Assembly (NCBI GenBank): GCA_965652925.1
Contig: CBFGXL010000003.1
Span: forward strand, 9-64,008
Direction of reading: 5' to 3'
From: an uncultured bacterium
GTDB taxonomy: Bacteria > Patescibacteriota > Minisyncoccia > Phycocordibacterales > UBA918
DNA: 64,000 bases
Shown: one piece after another, positions 17,307-62,790 of the stretch
Numbering within the stretch: the first letter of the stretch is position 1
Layout of the letters: each line of letters begins with the position of its first letter
Program-made: the position numbers and the translations under genes
The notes under the pieces: model-generated
The model's input: only the letters and a program-made list of their open reading frames with translations
Databases searched by the model: none
Told to the model about the DNA's origin: nothing

Positions 17307-18986
17307 ATGGAAATTTCCACTGATAATTTAGAAGAAATGCTTGTCCCGCCGGGACATATTACTGAAGAGCAGCTTCTTGCTGCAGTGACCGCTTCGGAGT
17401 ACAAACGTATTCCCTTAAAGGAAGAGCTCATTGAAGAAGGTCTGGTCACGGATGTTAATCTTGGGAGAACCATTGCTGATTTCTTCGACTGTCGGTTCAT
17501 CGACCTTGCTGAACTTTTGCTGAAAGATGAATATCTGCCGTATATTCCTGAAATAGTTGCTCGTGCGCAAAGAGCTGTCGTGTTCGGTGTGACTGATACA
17601 TCTGTTCAAGTTGCTACAGAGAATATCGACAACTATGAGTTCTTCAGACTTTTGGAGAAGAAGACAGGAAAAGAGGTGGATGTGTATTACGCAACCACTC
17701 GTGGGTTAGATCGCGCCCTTAAGCATTATAAAGGTGATCTCAATGGAAAGATCATTTCTCTTATACAGACCAGTTTACAAGACCAGCAGGATGGAGATAT
17801 TGTGCGGCTCGTGGATCTTTTCCTTGAATACGCAAGCGACAATCGCGCCTCAGACATTCATATTGAGCCGCTTGAAGAGGAGATACTCATACGGTTCCGT
17901 GTTGACGGCATATTGCACGAGGCTGTGCGGTATCCTAAAGTGCTGCATGAAAAGGTCATCTTCCGCATCAAGATTATGGCACATATGCAGACAGACGAGC
18001 ATGCTGCAGCACAAGACGGACGTTTTGAATACAAAGGTGCTGACAGTATATTTGATGTTCGTGTTTCTATATTGCCTATAACAGACGGTGAAAATGTGGT
18101 TATGCGTCTTTTGGACTCGCGTACACATCGTTACTCGCTTGAGAATCTTGGTCTTGGTGAAAGTGACTATAACAAGATCATCAATGCTATTGAAAAGCCT
18201 CATGGCATGATCATGGCGGTAGGACCAACCGGCTCCGGCAAGACCACTGTGCTGTACACCATACTGGAGAAACTCAACAGCAGTGAGGTCAATATCATGA
18301 CCATTGAAGACCCGGTTGAGTACGATATCGAAGGCGTGCAACAAACACAGGTCAACCCTAAAAAGAATCTCACGTTTGCAACCGGTTTGCGATCGATCGT
18401 CCGGCAAGACCCGGACATCATCATGGTGGGAGAGATCCGTGATGAGGAAACAGCTGACATTTCAATCAACTCGGCGCTTACCGGACATTTGGTCATTTCA
18501 ACATTGCACACGAATGATGCTGCAACTACCTTTCCGCGACTTATGGAAATGAATGTGGAGCCATTCCTCATTGCGTCATCAGTTAATGTCATTATTGCGC
18601 TCCGACTGGTGCGAAAGATATGCACTCACTGTAAGGAGAGTTACTTGCCGACTAAAACAGAGCTGCAGCTTTTGCAGCTTGATGACCATATTGTGGAGTT
18701 CATCACTCGTATTGGCGGTAGCAAGGATCTGACCAAACTACGATTGTACCGGGGTGTCGGCTGCAAGATGTGCCGCAATTCAGGCTTCAGCGAGCGGGGA
18801 GGTATTTTCGAGGTACTCGAAGTTGATGAGGACATACGCCTCCTTATAACGCAAAAGGCATCGGCAGAAATGATCAATCAAAAGGCAATAGAAAAAGGAA
18901 TGACCACGCTGTTGTACGACGGCATTGTTAAAGCCCTTAATGGTACAACAACGCTTGAAGAGGTAATGAAGGTGGCACGCACATAA
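17307..18986 (+). CDS. pilB: Type IV pilus assembly / type II secretion ATPase PilB/GspE
   Basis: T2SSE_N-like N-domain; Walker A GPTGSGKTT; Asp and His boxes; tetracysteine motif CTHC...CKMCRNSGF. Confidence 0.9.
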   Translation: MEISTDNLEEMLVPPGHITEEQLLAAVTASEYKRIPLKEELIEEGLVTDVNLGRTIADFFDCRFIDLAELLLKDEYLPYIPEIVARAQRAVVFGVTDTSVQVATENIDNYEFFRLLEKKTGKEVDVYYATTRGLDRALKHYKGDLNGKIISLIQTSLQDQQDGDIVRLVDLFLEYASDNRASDIHIEPLEEEILIRFRVDGILHEAVRYPKVLHEKVIFRIKIMAHMQTDEHAAAQDGRFEYKGADSIFDVRVSILPITDGENVVMRLLDSRTHRYSLENLGLGESDYNKIINAIEKPHGMIMAVGPTGSGKTTVLYTILEKLNSSEVNIMTIEDPVEYDIEGVQQTQVNPKKNLTFATGLRSIVRQDPDIIMVGEIRDEETADISINSALTGHLVISTLHTNDAATTFPRLMEMNVEPFLIASSVNVIIALRLVRKICTHCKESYLPTKTELQLLQLDDHIVEFITRIGGSKDLTKLRLYRGVGCKMCRNSGFSERGGIFEVLEVDEDIRLLITQKASAEMINQKAIEKGMTTLLYDGIVKALNGTTTLEEVMKVART

Positions 18987-18989
18987 CAT

Positions 18990-20039
18990 ATGCTCGGTTC
19001 AATTTCTATTCAGCATCGCGTCGATTTTGCCAAAAACTTGGCAATTATGCTTCGTAGCGGTATAGCCATCAATGATGCGCTTACTTCATTGGGAGAGCAG
19101 AGTGAATCTTCGCGCCTGCGCAGGATTATTTTTAAGGTTCGTGACGATATCGAAAATGGGACATCGCTGTCTGCCGCCTTCGCGAAGGAGGTGCATGTTT
19201 TTGGGCAGATATTTGTCAGTATGATCAAAGCCGGAGAGCAGAGCGGTACGCTGCAAGGGAATCTGCAATTCCTCTCAGACTGGCTTTCACGGAGTGCAGA
19301 TCTCAAACGTGAGGTTTCAGCAGCGACACTGTATCCAAAAATGGTCTTTGGCGCGTCGGTTGTCCTTGGTGGGGGGCTTGCGGTATTCATACTTCCCATG
19401 CTTGTGCCACTGTTTACCGGTCTTGATGTGGAGCTTCCACTGCTTACACGAGTATTGCTTGCCTTGTCTTTGTTTGTGCAGGAATACTGGTTCTGGTGCA
19501 TTGTCGGCACAATTGCCGCGATCGCTGCGCTCATTTACAGCAATACCTTTGCGCCGGTGAAATTCCTCTTTCATCTTTTATATATTCGTATGCCGTTCCT
19601 TGGGAAACTCATGCGCCAGTATCAGCTCGCACTTATCACACAGTTGTTTGCAACACTGCTCAAAAGTGGCTTATCGCTCAATGAGTCTGTTGAGATCGTC
19701 TCTCAAGCAGCAACGAATGTGCATTATCAAAATGCGCTCCGTGAGGTCAAGTCTGCAACTGAAAAAGGGACGACGTTGTCAGAGACCATGCGTGACTTCC
19801 CACAGATGTTTCCGGTGATCGCTGTTAATATCATTGCCATTGGCGAAAAAAGTGGAACGCTATCGAATTCACTCGATTATCTTTCGGATTTTTATACCAA
19901 AGAGGTGAATGTGCAGGCACGCAAACTGCCGACCATCATTGAGCCGCTGTTGCTTATTTTTATTGCGGTTATCGTCGGTTTTGTTGCGCTTGCGATCATC
20001 ATGCCAATCTATGAGCTTACCGGAAATATCTCACGTTAA
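18990..20039 (+). CDS. pilC: Type IV pilus inner-membrane platform protein PilC/GspF
   Basis: Two T2SSF-like repeats with conserved segments (AIMLRSGIAINDAL, ATLLKSGLSLNESV) and three TM regions. Confidence 0.85.
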   Translation: MLGSISIQHRVDFAKNLAIMLRSGIAINDALTSLGEQSESSRLRRIIFKVRDDIENGTSLSAAFAKEVHVFGQIFVSMIKAGEQSGTLQGNLQFLSDWLSRSADLKREVSAATLYPKMVFGASVVLGGGLAVFILPMLVPLFTGLDVELPLLTRVLLALSLFVQEYWFWCIVGTIAAIAALIYSNTFAPVKFLFHLLYIRMPFLGKLMRQYQLALITQLFATLLKSGLSLNESVEIVSQAATNVHYQNALREVKSATEKGTTLSETMRDFPQMFPVIAVNIIAIGEKSGTLSNSLDYLSDFYTKEVNVQARKLPTIIEPLLLIFIAVIVGFVALAIIMPIYELTGNISR

Positions 20040-21781: not shown

Positions 21782-22177
21782 ATGGGCAATATTCGCGGAT
21801 TCATAGCACTTACATCGGTATTGATACTCTCTGCAATTTTCCTATCCATCACTATAAGTATTGCTTCGCGAGCAATATCATCTTCATCAATACAGATCGC
21901 ATTCCAAGAACGCGACAATGCAAAATATAATGCAGAAGGCTGTCTGTCTTACGCACTAATGGAATTGCAACGGACCTTCGAATATGTGGGTGATGAGGGT
22001 ATACTGGTGGGCAACGGTACCTGCAATATTCTGTCTCTGTCAGAGGATGCTACCCAGCCTCGGACTGTACAGGTAGAAAGTACTGTGGGGAATCATACAT
22101 ACCGGCTAGAGGCAGATATTGCTGAAGTGGCACCACAGGTATATGTCACTTCAATTGAACGGGTTGAGACTTTTTAA
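21782..22177 (+). CDS. Hypothetical pilin-like protein with atypical leader (RGFIALTSVLIL)
   Basis: N-terminal hydrophobic helix after Gly, but no Glu at +5. Position within the pilus gene run suggests a minor pilin or pilus-tip component. Confidence 0.35.
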   Translation: MGNIRGFIALTSVLILSAIFLSITISIASRAISSSSIQIAFQERDNAKYNAEGCLSYALMELQRTFEYVGDEGILVGNGTCNILSLSEDATQPRTVQVESTVGNHTYRLEADIAEVAPQVYVTSIERVETF

Positions 22178-22178
22178 T

Positions 22179-23474
22179 ATGAAACATACACGGTTGATCG
22201 GAGTAGATATAAGCGACGCATCACTGAAGGTTCTTCAGCTGAGCAATGATGGAGTCATACTTGCATATGGTACTGCCTTGGTTCCTTCAGGGGTGATTGA
22301 GAACGGACGTATCGTCAATAAAGAAGCATTCGCAGCAGCGCTGAAGGGCTTGCTTCAACAGACCAAACCAAATGTGTTGCTCGATGGAAACAGTATTATC
22401 CGCACCGTCTTGTGTCTGCCGGAGTCAAAGCTGTTTACGCATTCACTTGTGATACCTGAAGGAACAAAAAGAAATGACATGCGCAGAGTGGTTGAAGAAG
22501 AGGCACGGAAGATCATTCCATATGAATTAGAACGGATGTACTGGGATTTCCACACTGCAGTCAAACTCGGGAAGACCTTCGCTACCTTTGTGGGAGTGGC
22601 AAAGTCTGATCTTGATAACTTTGTTGAAGCTTTCAGTTCTGCCCATGCACAGCCTGCGTTTATTGGAGGCGAATTGTTTGCGCTCGGACACGCTCTTCTC
22701 GAGGATCAGTTCAAAGGAAATTGCATCGTTGTTGATATGGGTCAGCACAGTACAACCATTGGTTTGTTTGCAGCAGATGTGATGCCAGACATGTCGGTGG
22801 TAGTCCCGTGTGCCGGAGATTCATTTACCCAGGCGATTGCAACAAAACTCGGTGTGGGTATGGAGGAAGCGGAGAAACAGAAGCGTATGTACGGGGTGCT
22901 CAGTGCACATGAGAAAACTGGCGTACCTGGTGAGCTGCGCACTTGCCTCAAGCAGATTACCGATGAGGTCAAGGCTATGAAATCCTTTTTTGAAAAACGA
23001 TATGAATTGTCAATTGATCATATCGTCCTTTCGGGAGGTTCGGCCCTTCTGCCGGGAATTGTGGAGCTGATGCAGGAAGAGACAGGGATTGCGTCGTACT
23101 TGGCTGATCCGTTAGTGAAAGTCAAAGGCCATGAAGTACTCGGTTCAGGAACCCCAGGCATTCTTTTTGCAAATGTCATTGGTCTGGCGCTCTATGCAAA
23201 GCAAAAACGAAGAGGCGACATCAACCTTCTTGGAAATTACCGGTATGAAGAAGGGGAAGCAAAAAAGGAACTGCCAAGCATTCAGGATATTCGATCCTTG
23301 GGTGATTTGTACTATTTTTTGTATAGCAATATCCAGAATATCAGGAATTTTCTCGATGATCGGAGTGATTCATTTAAAAAAAAGGTCACTATACCTGTTC
23401 AGCTCATACTGAGTCTGCTGTTTCTTGCAGCAACGCTCGTATTTCTTGGTTGGGTTATGCTCACTTACATGTAA
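22179..23474 (+). CDS. pilM: Type IV pilus assembly protein PilM (actin-like ATPase fold) with C-terminal TM segment (PilM-PilN-like fusion)
   Basis: N-terminus LIGVDISDASLKVLQL and the overall fold-signature pattern of PilM/FtsA-like proteins. C-terminal extension of about 80 aa ending in the TM helix VQLILSLLFLAATLVFLGWVML. Start set at the internal ATG (MKHTRL). Confidence 0.7.
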   Translation: MKHTRLIGVDISDASLKVLQLSNDGVILAYGTALVPSGVIENGRIVNKEAFAAALKGLLQQTKPNVLLDGNSIIRTVLCLPESKLFTHSLVIPEGTKRNDMRRVVEEEARKIIPYELERMYWDFHTAVKLGKTFATFVGVAKSDLDNFVEAFSSAHAQPAFIGGELFALGHALLEDQFKGNCIVVDMGQHSTTIGLFAADVMPDMSVVVPCAGDSFTQAIATKLGVGMEEAEKQKRMYGVLSAHEKTGVPGELRTCLKQITDEVKAMKSFFEKRYELSIDHIVLSGGSALLPGIVELMQEETGIASYLADPLVKVKGHEVLGSGTPGILFANVIGLALYAKQKRRGDINLLGNYRYEEGEAKKELPSIQDIRSLGDLYYFLYSNIQNIRNFLDDRSDSFKKKVTIPVQLILSLLFLAATLVFLGWVMLTYM

Positions 23475-23479
23475 AATAT

Positions 23480-23944
23480 ATGCATATGCCAATATCCACA
23501 CACAGAGGGTTTACACTTATTGAAGTGCTTTTGGTGATCGCTATTTTGGCAATACTTGCGGCTATCGTTATCATTGCCATTAATCCTGCAAAACAGTTTG
23601 CGAGCGCACGTGATGCGCAGCGCCAGAGCGACGTTTATTCTATTATGAATGCGCTTCATCAGTACGCGCTCGATAATGAAGGAGCATTTCCTGATGCCCT
23701 TACTACTGAGGAACTTGAGATTTGTCGAACTGACAGTGAGTCGTGCACAGACCTGTATGATCTCTCAGAACTTACTGATGGTCAGATCTATCTGGTTTCG
23801 ATGCCACTTGACCCGCAATGTCCATCTTCAAGCGCCAACTGTGCGGAGAACGGCACGGGGTATTTTGTCGGCCTTACAGACGGAGGCCGTGTAACGGTCA
23901 GCGCGTACGGCGCCGAGGATGGGGATATAAGTATTACTCGCTAA
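23480..23944 (+). CDS. Type IV major pilin (PilA-like), paralog 1
   Basis: Leader ..HRGFTLIEVLLVIAILAILAAIVIIAINP, a classic type IVa prepilin; C-terminal globular domain with 4 Cys. Start at the first in-frame ATG (MHMPIS); the six-frame ORF begins at an upstream TTG. Confidence 0.8.
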   Translation: MHMPISTHRGFTLIEVLLVIAILAILAAIVIIAINPAKQFASARDAQRQSDVYSIMNALHQYALDNEGAFPDALTTEELEICRTDSESCTDLYDLSELTDGQIYLVSMPLDPQCPSSSANCAENGTGYFVGLTDGGRVTVSAYGAEDGDISITR

Positions 23945-24014
23945 ATAAGGGGATAATGCTCATTGCCTCAGGTCGCGGGAGCTTATATACTTCAATAGTT
24001 ACTTTTTACTCGAA

Positions 24015-24503
24015 ATGTACATGACTACACCTCGTGCGTTTTTAGCCCGCAGATCATCAGGATTTACACTTATTGAAGTGCTTTTGGTGATCGCTATTTT
24101 GGCCATTCTAGCTGCTGTGGTTATTGTTGCTATAAATCCGGCAAAACAATTCGGAGAAGCTCAGAATGCACAGCGAAGAAGCGATGTCCGTTCAATACTT
24201 GATGCGGTGCACCAATACAGTATTGATAACTATGGATCACTGCCATCTGAGGAGATCCCATCTGGTAGCACTTGTTCTGTTGACGGAGCAGAAATATGCA
24301 TCGCCAACATTAGCTGTGCCGGGGTCAGTCTTGATGAACTAGTCAATGATGAGATTTATCTCACCAGCATTCCGACGGACCCGTCAGGGGCAACCGATGA
24401 AGGAACTGGTTATTACATCATGGAGAATGGAAGTGGGCGGGTCTCAGTATGTGCTTCAGCTTCCTCAACGTACGGAAATATTGATATAAGCGTAACACGT
24501 TGA
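24015..24503 (+). CDS. Type IV major pilin (PilA-like), paralog 2
   Basis: Leader ..SSGFTLIEVLLVIAILAILAAVVIVAINP, near-identical to the N-terminal helix of paralog 1. Divergent C-terminal domain with 4 Cys. Confidence 0.8.
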   Translation: MYMTTPRAFLARRSSGFTLIEVLLVIAILAILAAVVIVAINPAKQFGEAQNAQRRSDVRSILDAVHQYSIDNYGSLPSEEIPSGSTCSVDGAEICIANISCAGVSLDELVNDEIYLTSIPTDPSGATDEGTGYYIMENGSGRVSVCASASSTYGNIDISVTR

Positions 24504-50268: not shown

Positions 50269-50622
50269 TTAATCGATCAATATCTCAATTAGGGATTTCA
50301 ATCCCGTTAGGTCGCCAATCATCATCCCTGTATCCATGTTATGTATTTCCAGATCGAGGAGTTCGTTTACCAATGCTTCGATATCAGCACGGAGCCTCTT
50401 TAGATCCTCCTCATTTATCGAAGACTGTTCATTTTTTTCCCAATATCTAGTGTCATGGGAGTCATTGAGCACAATGTATTTGGAACCGCTAAGCACCTCT
50501 AAACATTCTATCCGCTTTTCAGTTATTCTTTTGCGCAGTATCTCCAGTTGAGCCATTTTAGAGTCGACGTTTTCTGTATTGTCTTGTGCGCCCGGTTCTT
50601 GTTTTTTAAAACTCTCGAACAT
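50269..50622 (-). CDS. Hypothetical coiled-coil protein
   Basis: Acidic helical ORF; no motif. Confidence 0.35.
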   Translation of the reverse strand: MFESFKKQEPGAQDNTENVDSKMAQLEILRKRITEKRIECLEVLSGSKYIVLNDSHDTRYWEKNEQSSINEEDLKRLRADIEALVNELLDLEIHNMDTGMMIGDLTGLKSLIEILID

Positions 50623-52827: not shown

Positions 52828-52860
52828 AGCGCACGACAGACAACGTGCGCTATTTTGTTT
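52828..52860 (+). terminator. Rho-independent terminator after groEL
   Basis: Stem agcgcacg / cgtgcgct with 8-nt loop, followed by attttgttt. Confidence 0.55.
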
Positions 52861-52903: not shown

Positions 52904-53467
52904 ATGTTTGAGAGCTGGAAGAAAAAGACACAGGAGCAAGTGAAGACTGAGTATGTTGGCGAGGATGACCCAACCAAATCAGATATTGCACGGCATGCTG
53001 ATGCCATTAAGGAAGGTAGATCGCTGCCGACTTCGTATGGCATGGAGGATGCGGTCATACAGGAGGCTCTTCGAGAACGAATTAAAGCAATGAGCAATGA
53101 AGAGCTTGAGCACTTTATTGATGATGTGTATGAACACATTGTTCAGAATCTTCAGCCTGAGTATCGTGAGGTCTTTGAAAGAGCAGTCAATGGTGACGAA
53201 GAAGCGTATCGGGAGATGCAGCGATTCACTGCTCCTGATTTCGCAGGCGTTATAACCGCAATCAATGGAGGATTAACGGCTGGATTGTCAAAATTAAATT
53301 TGATATTAGAGCCTAATAACACAAATTCACAAATGCTCATAGGAGCGGGTATTTTTTTCATGATCGTTGGAACTGCATATGGCGCTGCGCGGTTCGCTGA
53401 GAGAAGTCAAGCAAGAAGGCGTCTCCAAATGCTTGAAAGAATATCCCAGTTTTCACCTGCTGCTTAA
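52904..53467 (+). CDS. Hypothetical protein
   Basis: Acidic N-terminal helical half; C-terminal TM-like segment. Confidence 0.35.
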   Translation: MFESWKKKTQEQVKTEYVGEDDPTKSDIARHADAIKEGRSLPTSYGMEDAVIQEALRERIKAMSNEELEHFIDDVYEHIVQNLQPEYREVFERAVNGDEEAYREMQRFTAPDFAGVITAINGGLTAGLSKLNLILEPNNTNSQMLIGAGIFFMIVGTAYGAARFAERSQARRRLQMLERISQFSPAA

Positions 53468-53571
53468 TAGAGCAATTTGCCTGTGGTTACATACAAATCT
53501 CAGGTGTTGATTCTCATTTCAGGGGGTATACTATAGTGGCATTACGAACCGTAACTAAAAAAGCGACCATC

Positions 53572-54156
53572 ATGAACATCACGTACATTATTCTCGCCAT
53601 CCTGGCAGCAATCGTTGTCTGGGCGATACTTGCTTACAACAACTTTATAAAGCTCATCCAGCGAACCAAGGAGGCGTGGGCAGACATAGACGTGCAGCTC
53701 AAGCGCCGGTATGATCTTATCCCTAACCTCATTGAAACAGTCAAAGGATATGCAGCGCATGAGCGTGCGGTATTTGACGAAGTGACAGAAGCCCGCGCAA
53801 AAGCTACACAAATACATGTTGATCCTGCAAATATCACTCCTGAGCAGATAGCCGCAATGTCGGGCGCTGAATCTGCACTTACTGCATCGCTCGGCAAACT
53901 TCTTGCAGTTGCAGAAGCCTACCCAGATCTGAAGGCAAATCAGAACTTCGCTCAACTGCAGACTGAACTTTCTGACACGGAAAACAAGATCCAGGCTGCA
54001 CGCCGCTTCTACAACGGCAATGTGCGTGATCTGGCTATTGCACTGCAGTCGTTCCCATCAAATGTTATTGGCAATCTGTTCGGTTTCAAAGAGGAGAAAT
54101 ACTTCGAATTGGAAGAAGACAGTGTCGAGCGCGAAAATGTTAAGGTGAGCTTCTAG
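53572..54156 (+). CDS. lemA: LemA-family protein
   Basis: N-terminal TM then the conserved LemA core (AYNNFIKLIQRTKEAWADIDVQLKRRYDLIPNLIETVKGYAAHE...EVTEARA). Confidence 0.8.
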   Translation: MNITYIILAILAAIVVWAILAYNNFIKLIQRTKEAWADIDVQLKRRYDLIPNLIETVKGYAAHERAVFDEVTEARAKATQIHVDPANITPEQIAAMSGAESALTASLGKLLAVAEAYPDLKANQNFAQLQTELSDTENKIQAARRFYNGNVRDLAIALQSFPSNVIGNLFGFKEEKYFELEEDSVERENVKVSF

Positions 54157-54161
54157 TATCT

Positions 54162-54533
54162 ATGGAAAAGATCTACTATAACAAGCTTTGCCGGGATAAG
54201 ATCCCTGAAATTATCAAGAATAAGGGCTTTGACTGTCACGTGCGGGTTGTGGACCACGATGAATACAAGCGTGAGATAGTCCGTAAGGTGTTTGAAGAAG
54301 CAAGCGGTGTTCGGAACAATTCAGGCCATGAGGACCTGGTTGCAGAACTGGCCGATCTTATGATCACCATCGACGCAGTCAAGAAAGAGTTTGGCGTTTC
54401 AGATCTTGAGGTCTCTGCCGCTATCCAAAAGAGTCTTGATGAGAAAGGAGCATACGATGAGCGACTATACCTCTCTTGGTCATCGGATACAGAATATAGC
54501 TCAAACGAGCGAGGTCAGGGCTTTGATGATTAG
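54162..54533 (+). CDS. Small all-alpha MazG-like NTP pyrophosphohydrolase-fold protein, paralog 1
   Basis: N-terminus YYNKLCRDKIPEII and conserved Glu/Asp positions (EE..E, ELADL) typical of MazG/HisE-like all-alpha NTP-PPases. Confidence 0.5.
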   Translation: MEKIYYNKLCRDKIPEIIKNKGFDCHVRVVDHDEYKREIVRKVFEEASGVRNNSGHEDLVAELADLMITIDAVKKEFGVSDLEVSAAIQKSLDEKGAYDERLYLSWSSDTEYSSNERGQGFDD

Positions 54534-54536
54534 GAT

Positions 54537-54911
54537 ATGAAGAAAGTTTTCTATAACAAGCTTGTTCGCGACAAAATTCAGGAAAAGATAGAAAAAAATG
54601 GGGAAGCGTGCGAAGTGCGGGTTATAGAAGACGATGATGAGTTTGAACAAGAGCTCTTCAAAAAGATAAAAGAAGAAGCTGACGCTCTTGCGTCGGTTTC
54701 TTCACGAGAAGAATTTCTTAAAGAATACGCCGATTTAATGGTTGTCCTTGATGCACTTACGCATCATATGGAGTTCTCAGAAGCCGATATTAAAACTGCC
54801 ATCGAGGAAAATGTTGCAAAAAAAGGCCTCTACAAGTTCCGGCATTTTTTGCATTGGTCAGACGAAGGAACATACAAAAGCAATGAAACACCTCAAGGTA
54901 TTAAGTCATAA
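54537..54911 (+). CDS. Small all-alpha MazG-like NTP pyrophosphohydrolase-fold protein, paralog 2
   Basis: N-terminus FYNKLVRDKIQEKI plus EYADLMVVLDAL. Tandem paralog of the previous gene, 3 nt apart. Confidence 0.5.
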   Translation: MKKVFYNKLVRDKIQEKIEKNGEACEVRVIEDDDEFEQELFKKIKEEADALASVSSREEFLKEYADLMVVLDALTHHMEFSEADIKTAIEENVAKKGLYKFRHFLHWSDEGTYKSNETPQGIKS

Positions 54912-57248
54912 CTCTCTCTTCTTTCTTCTTTGTGCCGCGTTTTTTCTCATCGGACCGTCTTTTGTCTCTGCGGAGACCATCCAATCTTTCAGTACTGATA
55001 TTAAGCTCAATCAGGATGGGAGTTTTGTTGTTGAAGAGACAATTGTATACGACTTTGGGAATGAGGAACGTCACGGTATTTTTCGTTTTATTGAAAAGAA
55101 ACATCCACAGGAGGCATCTTCATTCCTGAAAGAGAGATTTACTGAAATCACGGTGGAAGACGTAACTATGGACCAGAAGCCGGTCCCGTATGACATACAT
55201 GATTCAAAAGAAAACCTTGAGATAAAAATTGGCGACCCCTATTCGACCATAACTGGGGCTCATCAATTTATAATTACCTATGAAGTTGTTGGAAATTATG
55301 CGTACTTTGATGATGGTACTGCTGAGATCTACTGGGATGTAACTGGTACGCAGTGGAATGTTCCTATACAGAAGGTTACAGCATTGATACATACTGCAGA
55401 CATTCCATTGCTTGAACGCGTAGCTTGTTATAAAGGGCCAGAAGGATCCAACACCCCGTGTGACAGTATCCAGACAGAAGACACCGGTAGTGTGCACTTT
55501 TTTGCCAGCAACCTTGCTCCTTATGAAAACCTGACCATCGCTCAATCATTTGACGCGGCAGTGCCGCGTTTTTTCTCATCGGACCGTCTTTTGTCTCTGC
55601 GGAGACCATCCAATCTTTCAGTACTGATATTAAGCTCAATCAGGATGGGAGTTTTGTTGTTGAAGAGACAATTGTATACGACTTTGGGAATGAGGAACGT
55701 CACGGTATTTTTCGTTTTATTGAAAAGAAACATCCACAGGAGGCATCTTCATTCCTGAAAGAGAGATTTACTGAAATCACGGTGGAAGACGTAACTATGG
55801 ACCAGAAGCCGGTCCCGTATGACATACATGATTCAAAAGAAAACCTTGAGATAAAAATTGGCGACCCCTATTCGACCATAACTGGGGCTCATCAATTTAT
55901 AATTACCTATGAAGTTGTTGGAAATTATGCGTACTTTGATGATGGTACTGCTGAGATCTACTGGGATGTAACTGGTACGCAGTGGAATGTTCCTATACAG
56001 AAGGTTACAGCATTGATACATACTGCAGACATTCCATTGCTTGAACGCGTAGCTTGTTATAAAGGGCCAGAAGGATCCAACACCCCGTGTGACAGTATCC
56101 AGACAGAAGACACCGGTAGTGTGCACTTTTTTGCCAGCAACCTTGCTCCTTATGAAAACCTGACCATCGCTCAATCATTTGACGCGGCACCTGTAGAGAA
56201 AGTCATCCTTGAGCGGTATCGATGGATAATTTTCGCTGTTATATTTTTCCCTGTTCTGATTTTAGCAATGATTTTCTTTGGGTATCGATACCGAACACAG
56301 TACAAAACAGGAAATCCAATCGTTGCACAGTATGAACCTTTTGAAGACTTTAAGCCTATGTATGCGGGTATGCTGTTTGATGGTAGGCTTGATCCTCGGG
56401 ACATTACCGCTGGGATTGTATACCTGGCCGAACAAGGATATCTCAAGATACGAAGAATAGAGCGGAAGGTTTTGTTTGTGTTTGAAGTCGATGACTACGA
56501 AATAACACTTATGCGCAGTGTTGCAAGCATACCCAACGATTTTTTGAGAGACATAGTATTACTCATGTTCGAATTACATGACACAGCAGGAAGAATAGTA
56601 TCCCTCGATGAGCTTAAGCAAAAAAGCATAAAACAAAGAGAAAATTTCACACGATTGCAGAAATTAAAGCGTGACCTCAAAGAGGATATGAAAAACAATG
56701 GTTTTTATCAAACATTCCCTGTTATTGGTTATCTGGTCGGTTCAATTGCCATACTTTTTTTCATTCTTATATTGCTCGTCGAGATATATCCTCTTCTAAC
56801 TATATTTGGCGTGTGTGTATTGCTGGCTGTTGCTGGTATCTTTGCATTTGTCATGAGCGAACGCCGAACTCGCAGAGGGTATGAAGCACTTGATCATCTC
56901 AAAGGATTTAAACTTTTCTTGTCAGTGACAGACGAGGAACGTTTCAAGTTTCATAATGCTCCACAAAAAAGCCCGGAACAGTTTATGGAGTATCTGCCGT
57001 TTGCGATAGCCTTTGGTGTAGAAAAGCAATGGGCAAAAGCATTTGAAGATATTACGATCCCAAATCCTGATTGGTATGACGGTGGGAGTGTGGGTAGTTT
57101 TTCGGCAATGAATTTCACTTCCAGCATCGGCGCATTCTCATCTTCAATTGCGTCGTCGTCTGTCTCGAGTTCGTCAAGCAGTGGTGGAAGTAGTGGCGGT
57201 GGTTTTTCAGGCGGAGGAGGTGGAGGCGGCGGTGGTGGATCGTGGTGA
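54883..57248 (+). pseudogene. DUF2207-family membrane protein gene disrupted by a frame-shifting 629-bp internal tandem duplication (annotated as two ORFs, 54883..55758 and 55782..57248)
   Basis: Signal peptide and extracellular domain, then TM and cytoplasmic domain ending in a Ser/Gly-rich tail (..SSSGGSSGGGFSGGGGGGGGGGSW) typical of DUF2207. The exact 629-bp direct repeat shifts the frame at its junction (..QSFDAA/VPRFFSSDRL..stop). The second ORF restarts inside repeat copy 2. Confidence 0.6.
54932..56189 (+). repeat. Perfect tandem direct duplication, 2 x 629 bp (54932..55560 and 55561..56189)
   Basis: Identical sequence read in both copies (gtgccgcgttttttctcatcggaccgtc ... tcaatcatttgacgcggca). 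The two pairs of six-frame minus-strand ORFs it produces are also identical (113 aa and 61-67 aa). Confidence 0.9.
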
Positions 57249-57287
57249 TTCTTGCAACTATCGCAATTGGCCCTACAATGTAGTCAT

Positions 57288-58184
57288 ATGGCTACATTGT
57301 ATACGCATCAGGGAAGTAATATCGCAAAGACATGGTTTCTGATGGCCATGTTCTTCGCAATCGTCATTGCTATAGGTTATGCAGTTTCTTGGTATTTAGG
57401 TGACTCAAGTATTTTGTATATTGCAATCATATTTGCACTTGTTATGAATGTGGGAAGCTACTGGTTCTCCGACAAGCTCGTGGTCTCCATGACAGGCGCA
57501 AAACCTGCAACACGGGAAGAATATCCAGACCTTTGGAATGTTGTTGAGAATCTTTCGATCACCGCAGGGCTGCCGATGCCGAAGGTGTATGTAGTTAATG
57601 ACCCTGCGCCCAATGCTTTTGCAACCGGCAGAGACCCAAAACATGCAGTTGTTGCTGCAACCACCGGCCTCTTGCAGATACTCGATCGAACGGAGCTTGA
57701 AGGGGTGATGGCACATGAGCTTTCGCATGTAGGAAACAGGGACATGCTTGTGTCGACTGTTGCGGTTGTGTTGGCAGGATTTGTTGCCATTCTTTCAGAC
57801 ATTTTCCTGCGTGCAACGATGTTTGGCGGGGGAGATGATCGCAAGCACCCCATTTTCCTTATTCTAGCTGTGGTAGGCATCGTTCTTGCACCAATCGCTG
57901 CCTCACTTATCCAAATGGCTATTTCCCGCAAAAGAGAATTCCTTGCGGACGCTTCGGGTGCCTTGCTTACGCGCTATCCGGAAGGATTGGCTTCTGCGCT
58001 TGAGAAAATATCAACGTATGGCCGTCCAATGGTACGCGCGAACAATGCAACCGCGCATCTGTTCATTGCTGATCCGTTTGGTCCCGGCAAGGGGTCACTT
58101 ACAAAGAAGATTGCAAACTGGTTCCAAACGCATCCTCCGGTAGAGGATCGGGTGCGCATTCTCAGAGGAATGGATGTTCAGTAA
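57288..58184 (+). CDS. htpX: Zinc metalloprotease HtpX (peptidase M48)
   Basis: HEXXH in GVMAHELSHVGNRD; downstream Glu (EFLADA); 4 TM helices. The upstream in-frame ATG at 57252 is an alternative start. Confidence 0.85.
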   Translation: MATLYTHQGSNIAKTWFLMAMFFAIVIAIGYAVSWYLGDSSILYIAIIFALVMNVGSYWFSDKLVVSMTGAKPATREEYPDLWNVVENLSITAGLPMPKVYVVNDPAPNAFATGRDPKHAVVAATTGLLQILDRTELEGVMAHELSHVGNRDMLVSTVAVVLAGFVAILSDIFLRATMFGGGDDRKHPIFLILAVVGIVLAPIAASLIQMAISRKREFLADASGALLTRYPEGLASALEKISTYGRPMVRANNATAHLFIADPFGPGKGSLTKKIANWFQTHPPVEDRVRILRGMDVQ

Positions 58185-58194
58185 AGGATGTATA

Positions 58195-58227
58195 TAAAAA
58201 AACCGCAGCGGAGGCTGCGGTTTTTTT
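58195..58227. terminator. Bidirectional rho-independent terminator
   Basis: A-run, stem ccgcagc / gctgcgg with gga(g) loop, then 7 T. Lies between convergent htpX and the minus-strand small genes. Confidence 0.7.
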
Positions 58228-60966: not shown

Positions 60967-61061
60967 TTTGAGAAAATATATGTACTTATGCAATTGGCTT
61001 AATTGCTGAAAGAAAAGCGAAGGTTATACTATAAAATTGAAGTAAGGCCTAATATATTTTC

Positions 61062-62213
61062 ATGAGAAATTTTCTTGTTTTCGTTAATGTTGTTTTCGCA
61101 TATGTTTTCATGAGAAAAATTTTTGTTTTCGTTATTGTTGTTTCCGTACTTGCATTAAGCGCATATGTATTTAGGGACTATATCGATCTATCTCTATTTA
61201 ATAGGGTAGAGATTGAAGAGTCCAAAAAAGCTGAGCCACTTGTTGAGAAATTGAACTCAGAATTGCTCGATCAGGTCAGAAATGTCCCTGATGAACTCGC
61301 ACAAGAATTGCGCTCGACGCGTCTGTATCTCATGCTTCGCGGGAACAATCAAAACGTGACCAAATCTTATGTGTTTGAGAATGGGGCGTTTGCAACGGAC
61401 CATTCTCAAGGCATCGTGGATTATTTTTATTCGTTCGCAAACGATGGAAGCAAACTGACCTTCTTCGCTGTTCCTCACGAGACTGAAGAAGGGTCCGGAG
61501 GATGGGCTGAAAATGCAAAGCTTTTTGTTGCAAGTTCAACAGAGGTGGCAAGTACGCCTTTCCCTCTTTTGGCTAACAGCATGGTATTGGACGAGTCAAC
61601 GATCAAATACAAGCAGCATCCTAGGATCTCAAACGCGGGGGATGTGCTCTTCGTTGGCTGGGATCAAAGTTGGGAGCCTATTGTTGAAAATGTCGATGAC
61701 TGGTCAATATATTCAGTTGTTGACGGCAAAGCTCAGTTCTTAACCAATGGTTTCATGCCAAAGTGGCTTAATGACGATGAGTTCATCTATCTTAAAAACG
61801 ACGGTCTTTACATAAGCAATAAGGATAACTCCGAAGTTGTCCAACTCTACGAAGTTCCTGAAGGCAAAATTATTCAAAATAATAACAATTTTGACATCTC
61901 TCCAAATGGCGACCAGATCGCTTGGATCCAGCCCGATAATGGCCAAGTCGTATTGTTCACACTAACTGAAGACCGTGAACTCATTGAAGAAGCCACTTTC
62001 AAAGCAAAAGGCTTTTGGGTGACCTTCTCCCCAAGCGGCAAGTACTTGGCAGCTCAGACGATCTCCGAAAGCGCAACAGGAATGGAAGCAGATCCTCAAG
62101 CGAAGATAGAATTCTTTGATACTGAAACAAAGATGAAGATCTCAGAATTGGAGATCGCGCTGAGCGATTTCAATCAATTATTCATGTTCATAAACGACTG
62201 GGTAACACGATAA
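61062..62213 (+). CDS. Hypothetical membrane-anchored protein with beta-propeller-like (TolB/WD-like) repeats
   Basis: N-terminal hydrophobic segment duplicated (MRNFLVFVNVVFAYVF / MRKIFVFVIVVSVLALSAYVF). C-terminal repeats such as ISPNGDQIAWIQPDNGQVVLF and FSPSGKYLAAQ. Confidence 0.35.
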   Translation: MRNFLVFVNVVFAYVFMRKIFVFVIVVSVLALSAYVFRDYIDLSLFNRVEIEESKKAEPLVEKLNSELLDQVRNVPDELAQELRSTRLYLMLRGNNQNVTKSYVFENGAFATDHSQGIVDYFYSFANDGSKLTFFAVPHETEEGSGGWAENAKLFVASSTEVASTPFPLLANSMVLDESTIKYKQHPRISNAGDVLFVGWDQSWEPIVENVDDWSIYSVVDGKAQFLTNGFMPKWLNDDEFIYLKNDGLYISNKDNSEVVQLYEVPEGKIIQNNNNFDISPNGDQIAWIQPDNGQVVLFTLTEDRELIEEATFKAKGFWVTFSPSGKYLAAQTISESATGMEADPQAKIEFFDTETKMKISELEIALSDFNQLFMFINDWVTR

Positions 62214-62217
62214 AAAT

Positions 62218-62790
62218 ATGAAAAGCAAAATCAACGTTTTCGATGCGGCTAATTGGGGACCCTGGGAAACTTTTCTACTGGCGGGTGTGTTATTTATAGC
62301 AATATTTTCCCCTGCTCCTGCGAATGCGAGCCATAGAGATGGCCATAACTACAACCCTGCAAATGACCCTTCATATGGTGTTCCCTGTCCCAATATCTAC
62401 AATACAAGCAGTTATTCTCAAGGCAGCTATTCTACGTACGCTCAAGGCAGCTATTCTACGTACGCTCAGGGTAGTTACTACACCCAGGGCCAGTACTACA
62501 GTCAGAGCCAATACTATGTCCAGGGCGCATACATCAATTCACCTGAGCTCAGAGTTCTGCCTAAATTGGTGGAAAAGGACTCCACAACCACTCTGACGTG
62601 GGATGGGGGAAATGCAGACTCGTGCAGGCTCACCGGAGGAAAATTCAACAACTCTTCTGTTTCTGTTATCGGTTCAGCTGATGTTGTGATAACCGGTGAG
62701 ACTACCTTCACTATAGAATGTTTCCTCGGTCCGCAACAAAGCACCCATAGTGTTACCGTTAAGGTCGTCCCTGAGATAGAGGAAACTTAA
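62218..62790 (+). CDS. Secreted protein with Tyr/Gln/Ser-rich low-complexity repeats and C-terminal Ig-like domain
   Basis: Signal peptide; SYSQGSYSTYAQGSYSTYAQGSYYTQGQYYSQSQYYVQGAY encoded partly by a 24-bp tandem DNA repeat (62417..62464); C-terminal beta-rich domain with 2 Cys. Confidence 0.4.
   Translation: MKSKINVFDAANWGPWETFLLAGVLFIAIFSPAPANASHRDGHNYNPANDPSYGVPCPNIYNTSSYSQGSYSTYAQGSYSTYAQGSYYTQGQYYSQSQYYVQGAYINSPELRVLPKLVEKDSTTTLTWDGGNADSCRLTGGKFNNSSVSVIGSADVVITGETTFTIECFLGPQQSTHSVTVKVVPEIEET

Follow-up and report, generated by a model that had tools for sequence, protein, structure and literature searches.

The gene studied here codes for a membrane protein of the DUF2207 family and lies in a stretch of 64,000 nt from an uncultured bacterium of the Patescibacteriota (assembly GCA_965652925.1, contig CBFGXL010000003.1, positions 9 to 64,008 of the forward strand). 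This whole stretch is referred to below as the window, and all coordinates are positions in it. The gene, which starts with the ATG at 54883, carries a tandem duplication of an internal segment of 629 bp (hereafter, the unit; Table 1). Direct comparison of the two copies revealed 0 mismatches over 629 nt, and their identity extended for 0 nt beyond the unit on both sides, which makes the breakpoints unambiguous; the same comparison of the flanks of the two copies detected no direct-repeat microhomology at the breakpoints. According to a repeat search, this is the sole long perfect repeat in the 64-kb window. The unit runs from the second base of codon 17 to the end of codon 226, and comprises the latter half of the signal peptide and the entire all-beta ectodomain. 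As 629 equals 3 × 209 + 2, the reading frame shifts at the junction of the copies (55560/55561). The first of the two resulting open reading frames (ORFs), ORF1, reads ..SFDAA/VPRFFSS..HLHS across the junction and then reaches a stop. ORF2, which in public annotations starts from the ATG at 55797, has no signal peptide and, by the modelled topology, would comprise the last 130 amino acids (aa) of the ectodomain, the first transmembrane helix (TM1), the cytoplasmic domain, the transmembrane (TM) hairpin, the C-terminal domain and the glycine-rich tail. When one copy was deleted in silico, a single ORF of 578 aa was obtained. Thus, the comparison of the copies and the ORF coordinates bore out what the first-pass annotation of this DNA had claimed: a perfect 629-bp tandem copy, a frameshift at the junction that leaves ORFs of 291 and 488 aa, and the restoration of the DUF2207 frame by the removal of one copy (it had given the length of the restored product as about 579 aa).

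Table 1. Features of the DUF2207 locus and its neighbourhood (window positions).
Feature	Position	Strand	Remarks
Copy 1 of the unit	54932–55560	+	Codons 17–226 of the DUF2207 gene; identical to copy 2
Copy 2 of the unit	55561–56189	+	Identical to copy 1
ORF1	54883–55758	+	291 aa; signal peptide and ectodomain, 226 native aa, then 65 out-of-frame aa
ORF2	55782–57248	+	488 aa from GTG 55782; 483 aa from ATG 55797
Left arm of the 9-bp inverted repeat	54932–54940	+	GTGCCGCGT; at the left breakpoint
Right arm of the 9-bp inverted repeat	56182–56190	+	ACGCGGCAC; the right flank starts with its last C
Junction hairpin	55552–55575	+	GACGCGGC-AGT-GCCGCGTT, then T-run; terminator-like (terminator scan); junction only, absent from the single-copy allele
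Heptamer T TTT TTC	55569–55575	+	In phase with the shifted frame, 8 nt past the junction; read from the sequence
LemA-family gene	53536–54156	+	Upstream cluster partner; Pfam PF04011, E = 4e-58
Two small paralogous genes	54162–54533, 54537–54911	+	123 and 124 aa; ORFs between the LemA and DUF2207 genes
HtpX-like M48 peptidase gene	57288–58184	+	Directly downstream; Pfam PF01435

The restored 578-aa protein matched two Pfam families, DUF2207 N (PF09972) at aa 32–220 with 83.3 bits (cut-off 24.4) and DUF2207_C (PF20990) at aa 272–511 with 123.9 bits (cut-off 33), and could be aligned end to end with 52 orthologues of 552–584 aa at 44–60% identity. The duplication was present in 0 of these 52 orthologues, which indicates that the single copy is the ancestral state, and no split homologue was found among the 120 best matches. 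The AlphaFold (AF2) model of the 578-aa form (pLDDT 86) predicted, in this order, a signal peptide, the all-beta ectodomain (strands at aa 32–224, pLDDT about 96), TM1 (helix at aa 238–261), a cytoplasmic alpha/beta domain, the TM hairpin (aa 403–447, with helices at 403–424 and 428–447), a helical C-terminal domain and a disordered glycine tail (aa 553–578). A fold search of the model against the PDB returned a generic beta-sandwich likeness only, to the N-domains of M1 aminopeptidases and to an OST subunit (TM-score about 0.2), and allowed no functional call; a search of the literature on the function of DUF2207 and LemA yielded nothing useful. In relatives with GroEL proteins 92–95% identical, the DUF2207 proteins are merely 54–57% identical. 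Judged from these sequences, the DUF2207 protein appears to evolve fast, given that its gene is conserved and single-copy, and much of the visible divergence lies in the ectodomain and in the region of the TM hairpin.

Both forms of the gene were found in public assemblies. An exact-sequence look-up retrieved the split pair of proteins (P0122, 291 aa, and P0001, 483 aa) from 10 contigs in NCBI and ENA, and the reconstructed 578-aa protein (P0121) from 24–27 contigs in ENA and Logan. In their DNA, the contigs with the duplication (L001/L012, L013, L014, L033 and L036, from five ENA samples) contained two perfect units and the junction, and the single-copy contigs L002–L011, L021 and L029–L032 contained one unit and no junction. 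The flanks of duplicated and single-copy contigs were 99.9–100% identical, and four single-copy contigs were 100% identical to the window across 7–8.6 kb. Among the 23 longest contigs that include the upstream gene, 10 were duplicated and 13 were single. Exact DNA scans gave no match in the GTDB species representatives (junction and left boundary), where this species has no representative, or in JGI metagenomes (junction and right boundary).

Additional evidence came from the contigs of a second assembler. Logan contigs are derived from a de Bruijn graph with k = 31, in which loops are left unresolved. In such a graph, the duplication junction should make a left-flank contig end at 54961 and a right-flank contig start at 56160, in each case k − 1 = 30 nt inside the unit, and the latter contig should encode a partial product of 362 aa. 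The start at 56160 and the 362-aa product were predicted before the contig was inspected, and the end at 54961 was derived from the same k − 1 rule. For contigs interrupted at the ends of the unit, partial proteins of 209, 362, 370 and 34 aa were predicted; an exact-sequence look-up found none of them on record, and the broken contigs were located through neighbouring genes. The Logan contig SRR32277373_1701, which is the same in 4 samples, starts at 56160 with a partial gene of 362 residues, and SRR32277375_65516 ends at 54961; the contigs of SRR32277359, 363, 366 and 367 traverse a single copy unbroken. Two ways into the start of the unit and two ways out of its end correspond to the topology of a duplication, not of a deletion. 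A deletion allele as the cause of the breaks was ruled out, as the left contig would then break at 54931, not at 54961. The presence of the junction in both assemblers excludes a one-off misassembly, and it is implausible that chimeras arose in more than 10 libraries at exactly the same position. The first-pass annotation had proposed either a very recent real duplication, possibly a reversible on/off switch, or an assembly artefact, and had suggested looking for both alleles in population data as a check. This check was positive, with the exact 578-aa protein and the exact split pair both on record. A recent real duplication is supported by the two alleles on 99.9–100% identical flanks and by the contig breaks of the second assembler 30 nt inside the unit ends, and an artefact is largely excluded, as the same junction occurs in separate assemblies and Logan breaks where expected.

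The allele represented in a contig was associated with coverage. The values in SPAdes contig names were 7.8, 8.0, 9.0, 9.4 and 9.6 for duplicated contigs (n = 5) and 3.9–6.1 for single-copy contigs (n = 11), with no overlap; the chance of such a perfect separation of 5 vs 11 is 1/4368. The duplicated lineage may be dominant where the organism is more abundant. At least as likely, the junction is subclonal everywhere and survives graph cleaning only above a depth threshold. In the latter case the alleles would coexist within samples, as expected of an unstable duplication, and the coverage-threshold pattern suggests such a coexistence inside a single sample.

Other variants were observed in the same contigs. 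A 17-bp deletion polymorphism at 52990–53006, in a 187-aa gene (52904–53467) just upstream of the LemA gene, is another structural variant that shifts a reading frame, at a distance of 2 kb from the duplication. The sequence lost, ACGGCATGCTGATGCCA, includes a small hairpin (GGCAT-GCTG-ATGCC); it is missing from L033 and L034 (ERZ27320629 NODE_517 and ERZ27245830 NODE_13), and its loss leads to a stop after 29 codons. A break at 53007 in the contigs of ERZ27245830 and ERZ27245939 points to the presence of both alleles of the 17-bp indel in these samples. The duplication was seen with and without the indel, and 3 of 4 haplotypes were seen, in contigs that represent the consensus of possibly mixed populations. 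Variants with one additional T were noted in T5/T7 homopolymers of low-coverage assemblies: at 55079 (L019, ERZ27320632), where it causes a frameshift in the DUF2207 gene at codon 67, at 50432 (L003/L031), where it splits a 117-aa gene, and at 58221 (L021). These variants are probably sequencing or assembly errors. The one in L019 was not relied on as a second independent knock-out, being like the homopolymer variants elsewhere in low-coverage assemblies.

The two ends of the unit in the single-copy allele are marked by the arms of a 9-bp inverted repeat (Table 1). Apart from the start of each unit and, as the reverse complement, the right boundary, no site in the window has this 9-mer. The empirical frequency of an inverted repeat of at least 9 bp at random 629-bp intervals was about 3e-4, with a slack of ±2 nt allowed. 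The arm codons encode C17-A-A-F and D224-A-A-P, residues that are not conserved in the orthologues, which argues against an evolved, conserved switch. We worked through template-switch and hairpin models that start from the inverted repeat, and every one of them gave an inverted, not a direct, junction. The possibility that the unit is a mobile element with terminal inverted repeats was ruled out, as it is conserved ectodomain coding sequence in all orthologues and the window contains no transposase. The octamer TGCCGCGT occurred 10 times in the window (8 times minus the duplicated copies) vs 1.4 times expected from dinucleotide shuffles. Its non-redundant sites (3575, 11778, 27268, 40128, 42815, 52595, 54933 and 55553) showed no strand bias and no common extended context.

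Since the arms of the inverted repeat lie at the ends of the unit, the junction of the two copies forms a GC-rich hairpin. The junction sequence is ACGCGGCA/GTGCCGCG, and reads as ACGCGGCA-G-TGCCGCGT, followed by TTTTTC. When the junction RNA was folded, it formed 8 pairs (6 of them G-C) and a 3-nt loop, followed by TTTTCTC, with an energy of −13.0 kcal/mol vs −7.6 ± 2.3 kcal/mol for the shuffled junction (z = −2.4). The two parental boundaries gave −1.1 and −3.6 kcal/mol, and neither of them folds. The junction was flagged by the terminator scan, and it has the GC-rich hairpin and U-tract of an intrinsic terminator. Two effects may thus silence the duplicated allele, namely termination at the junction and the shift of the frame. 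As for the T TTT TTC heptamer that lies past the junction, one may speculate that a −1 slip on it, or a T6-to-T7 (+1 T) mutation, would return the reading to the native frame, with a 788-aa double-ectodomain protein as the product; no stimulatory RNA structure was found downstream of the heptamer (z = 0.08).

Taken together, these results are most probably explained by a genuine recent 629-bp tandem duplication in the DUF2207 gene of an uncultivated member of the Parcubacteria (candidate phyla radiation, CPR), which segregates with the intact allele in one much-sampled natural population and would act as a reversible null. Five or more samples, each assembled on its own, contain the junction, as do the de Bruijn graphs of a second assembler; the intact allele is found on a background that is otherwise identical, and the duplication shifts the frame. 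The duplication would have arisen once, by a rare illegitimate, homology-free joining with breakpoints at the outer edges of the 9-bp inverted repeat. The duplicated allele would be null, with transcription stopping at the new hairpin or translation proceeding 65 codons out of frame to a stop, and the membrane-anchored remainder of the split protein would be left without a signal peptide. Recombination or replication slippage between the perfect 629-bp repeats would restore the exact wild-type gene, precisely and often. Two perfect direct repeats of 629 bp would make the duplication intrinsically unstable, and hence a reversible rather than a permanent knock-out; its loss by recombination between the repeats is expected, and the locus may be a reversible on/off switch if the duplication also forms anew. 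The occurrence of the duplicated allele in many samples implies a recent origin with a bottleneck, or an advantage of losing the protein.

Several points weigh against this explanation. Both the terminator function of the junction and the loss of gene function are predictions from sequence. The allele seen at the contig level may reflect a subclonal junction that passes a coverage filter rather than fixed differences between samples, and the assemblies do not fix the copy number (2 or more) or the fraction of each allele within a sample. The samples apparently come from one or a few related studies, which limits their biological independence. There is no evidence that the forward duplication event recurs. 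Moreover, none of the mechanisms that we could derive from the inverted repeat leads to a direct junction.

The recent duplication described above has to be weighed against programmed phase variation, in which repeated duplication is guided by the inverted repeat and undone by recombination, and the junction of the "off" state also serves as a terminator, as parts of an evolved surface-protein switch. We consider this improbable. Both alleles on an identical background in many samples would fit such a switch, as would the coincidence of the breakpoints with a unique 9-bp inverted repeat (p about 3e-4), the hairpin and T-run that the junction creates, and the within-sample mixtures suggested by the coverage pattern. 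The duplicated allele with and without the 17-bp indel 2 kb upstream could mean recurrence, but linkage read from consensus contigs of mixed populations is unreliable. Furthermore, the arm codons are not conserved and 0 of the 120 best homologues are split, so that there is no sign of a conserved switch. There is also no direct microhomology at the breakpoints, no recombinase or transposase lies nearby, and inverted repeats are not known to give rise to direct duplications. We would give as small a chance to a more novel reading, by which the inverted repeat is no coincidence and repeatedly directs this exact duplication, making the locus a self-contained switch, so that the "off" state writes a terminator into the gene and the "on" state is regenerated by recombination, or by which the duplicated allele is an evolutionary intermediate to the 788-aa double-ectodomain protein.

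It is somewhat less probable still that the chromosome is single-copy and that the junction reads come from a 629-bp circle, e.g., an excision product, or from a longer array, the loop of which was threaded once by the assembler. A de Bruijn graph cannot separate a tandem duplication from a single copy accompanied by a circle of the unit. The unit is probably longer than the insert size, which would leave the copy number unfixed by the assemblies, and the Logan breaks show that the junction exists, nothing more. However, dilution would remove a circle that does not replicate, and such a circle would need a duplicated parent in the first place, and the junction survives graph cleaning in at least 10 SPAdes assemblies and at least 5 Logan runs. 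Additionally, the unit is ordinary conserved coding sequence and no mobile element. Finally, an assembly or library artefact, by which chimeric reads or an assembler error made a junction absent from cells, is very unlikely: although the copies show zero divergence, coverage is low throughout (4–10x) and the allele call tracks it, the junction is the same to the base in at least five listed samples and in 10 contigs of differing length and coverage, it is crossed by SPAdes-style contigs and breaks the k = 31 contigs of Logan, the 9-bp inverted repeat is far below any k used and cannot merge graph nodes, and random chimeras would not recur at one position.

The neighbourhood of the DUF2207 gene comprises the LemA-family gene, two small paralogous genes and the htpX-like gene (Table 1). 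The second small paralogue overlaps the DUF2207 start by 29 nt. Both small paralogues begin with M-x-K-[IV]-[YF]-YNKL-x-RDKI, and Pfam assigned them to no confident family, giving a weak match to DUF7342 only. In the promoter scan, htpX had its own promoter-like site at 57252–57279 (TTGCAA-16-TACAAT), which ends 8 nt before the ATG, so that a near-leaderless mRNA would be predicted to result. Inspection of the regions upstream of about 15 genes at 51–63 kb revealed almost no recognisable Shine-Dalgarno (SD) sequence. As genes with no SD sequence are the norm here, the missing SD sequence before ORF2 is no argument against the translation of ORF2.

The remainder of the window is ordinary chromosome, with a type IV pilus cluster, two-component systems and copper resistance genes, and protein annotation of the 64 kb detected no transposase or recombinase. 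GroEL is 83–86% identical to sequences of named Parcubacteria, Nomurabacteria and Paceibacterota. The type IV pilus cluster includes genes for PilB/T2SSE at 17307, PilC/T2SSF at 18990 and PilM at 22119, and, at 23450–24503, a tandem pair of paralogous pilin-like genes with the N_methyl motif, in which a 186-nt stretch is 72% identical. At its right end, the window also has short tandem repeats within hypothetical genes or close to them, at 61052–61143 and 62417–62516 (a 48-nt unit × 1.9, a perfect 24-nt unit × 2.2 and an 18-nt unit × 2.3).

The locus provides a clean natural case, in an uncultivated CPR bacterium, of an intragenic tandem duplication that would switch a gene off while the intact allele persists in the population. 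It indicates that a perfect internal repeat in a metagenome-assembled genome is not necessarily an artefact, and that the question of a duplication can be settled without reads, from public assemblies made by different assemblers. If the loss of this conserved, LemA-linked envelope protein is selected, e.g., for phage escape or for an altered interaction with host cells, the locus would offer a handle on the function of DUF2207. Two curious features, the inverted repeat that marks the breakpoints and the junction that resembles a terminator, might bear on how homology-free duplications form.

By analogy, the closest precedent appears to be the phase variation of the pneumococcal capsule, where intragenic tandem duplications in cap3A, cap8E and tts act as reversible knock-outs (Waite et al. 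2001, 2003, as cited in PMC11163986 and PMC4243769). As in those genes, a spontaneous perfect tandem duplication within an ORF would turn the gene off, precise loss of one copy would restore it, and the two states coexist, although here the reversion is one that we infer. In contrast, the pneumococcal duplications arise and revert in culture at measured rates, whereas the duplication described here is 629 bp long and comes from an uncultivated organism, in which reversion and recurrence would have to be deduced. The pneumococcal duplications are also reportedly short, 11–239 bp. We know of no counterpart to the breakpoint inverted repeat or to the terminator-like junction.

In enteric bacteria, as studied by Roth, Andersson and others, the direct repeats of duplications are lost at high frequency, by RecA-dependent or slippage-type events, so that populations are mixed and duplications persist only under selection. 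The unit shares with these unstable duplications and amplifications direct repeats that would be prone to loss. However, enteric duplications usually involve whole genes, lie between insertion sequences (IS), rrn or repetitive extragenic palindromic (REP) repeats and raise gene dosage, whereas the present one is intragenic, homology-free and gene-destroying. A reversible frameshift in a surface or envelope gene is also the outcome of phase variation by slipped-strand mispairing in simple-sequence repeats, but these have units of 1–10 nt and high rates both ways, whereas here there is a single 629-bp unit and the forward step is probably rare.

Short inverted repeats at breakpoints are shared with the tandem inversion duplications of Salmonella and with origin-dependent inverted-repeat amplification (ODIRA) in yeast, an amplification mediated by inverted repeats (PMC11790251). 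Events of the ODIRA/Salmonella type give inverted triplications with head-to-head junctions, whereas the copies described here are in direct order and the arms of the repeat lie at opposite ends of the unit. The junction resembles Rho-independent terminators in its GC-rich stem of 7–8 bp, its 3-nt loop and the T-run that follows; a clear intrinsic terminator is present in the same window after groEL (52828–52851, −19.3 kcal/mol). Unlike such terminators, the predicted junction hairpin would be a product of the rearrangement, located inside a coding region and with only 4–5 U after the stem. In comparison with all these systems, the duplication in the DUF2207 gene is a natural polymorphism of an already known type, not a new type of system.

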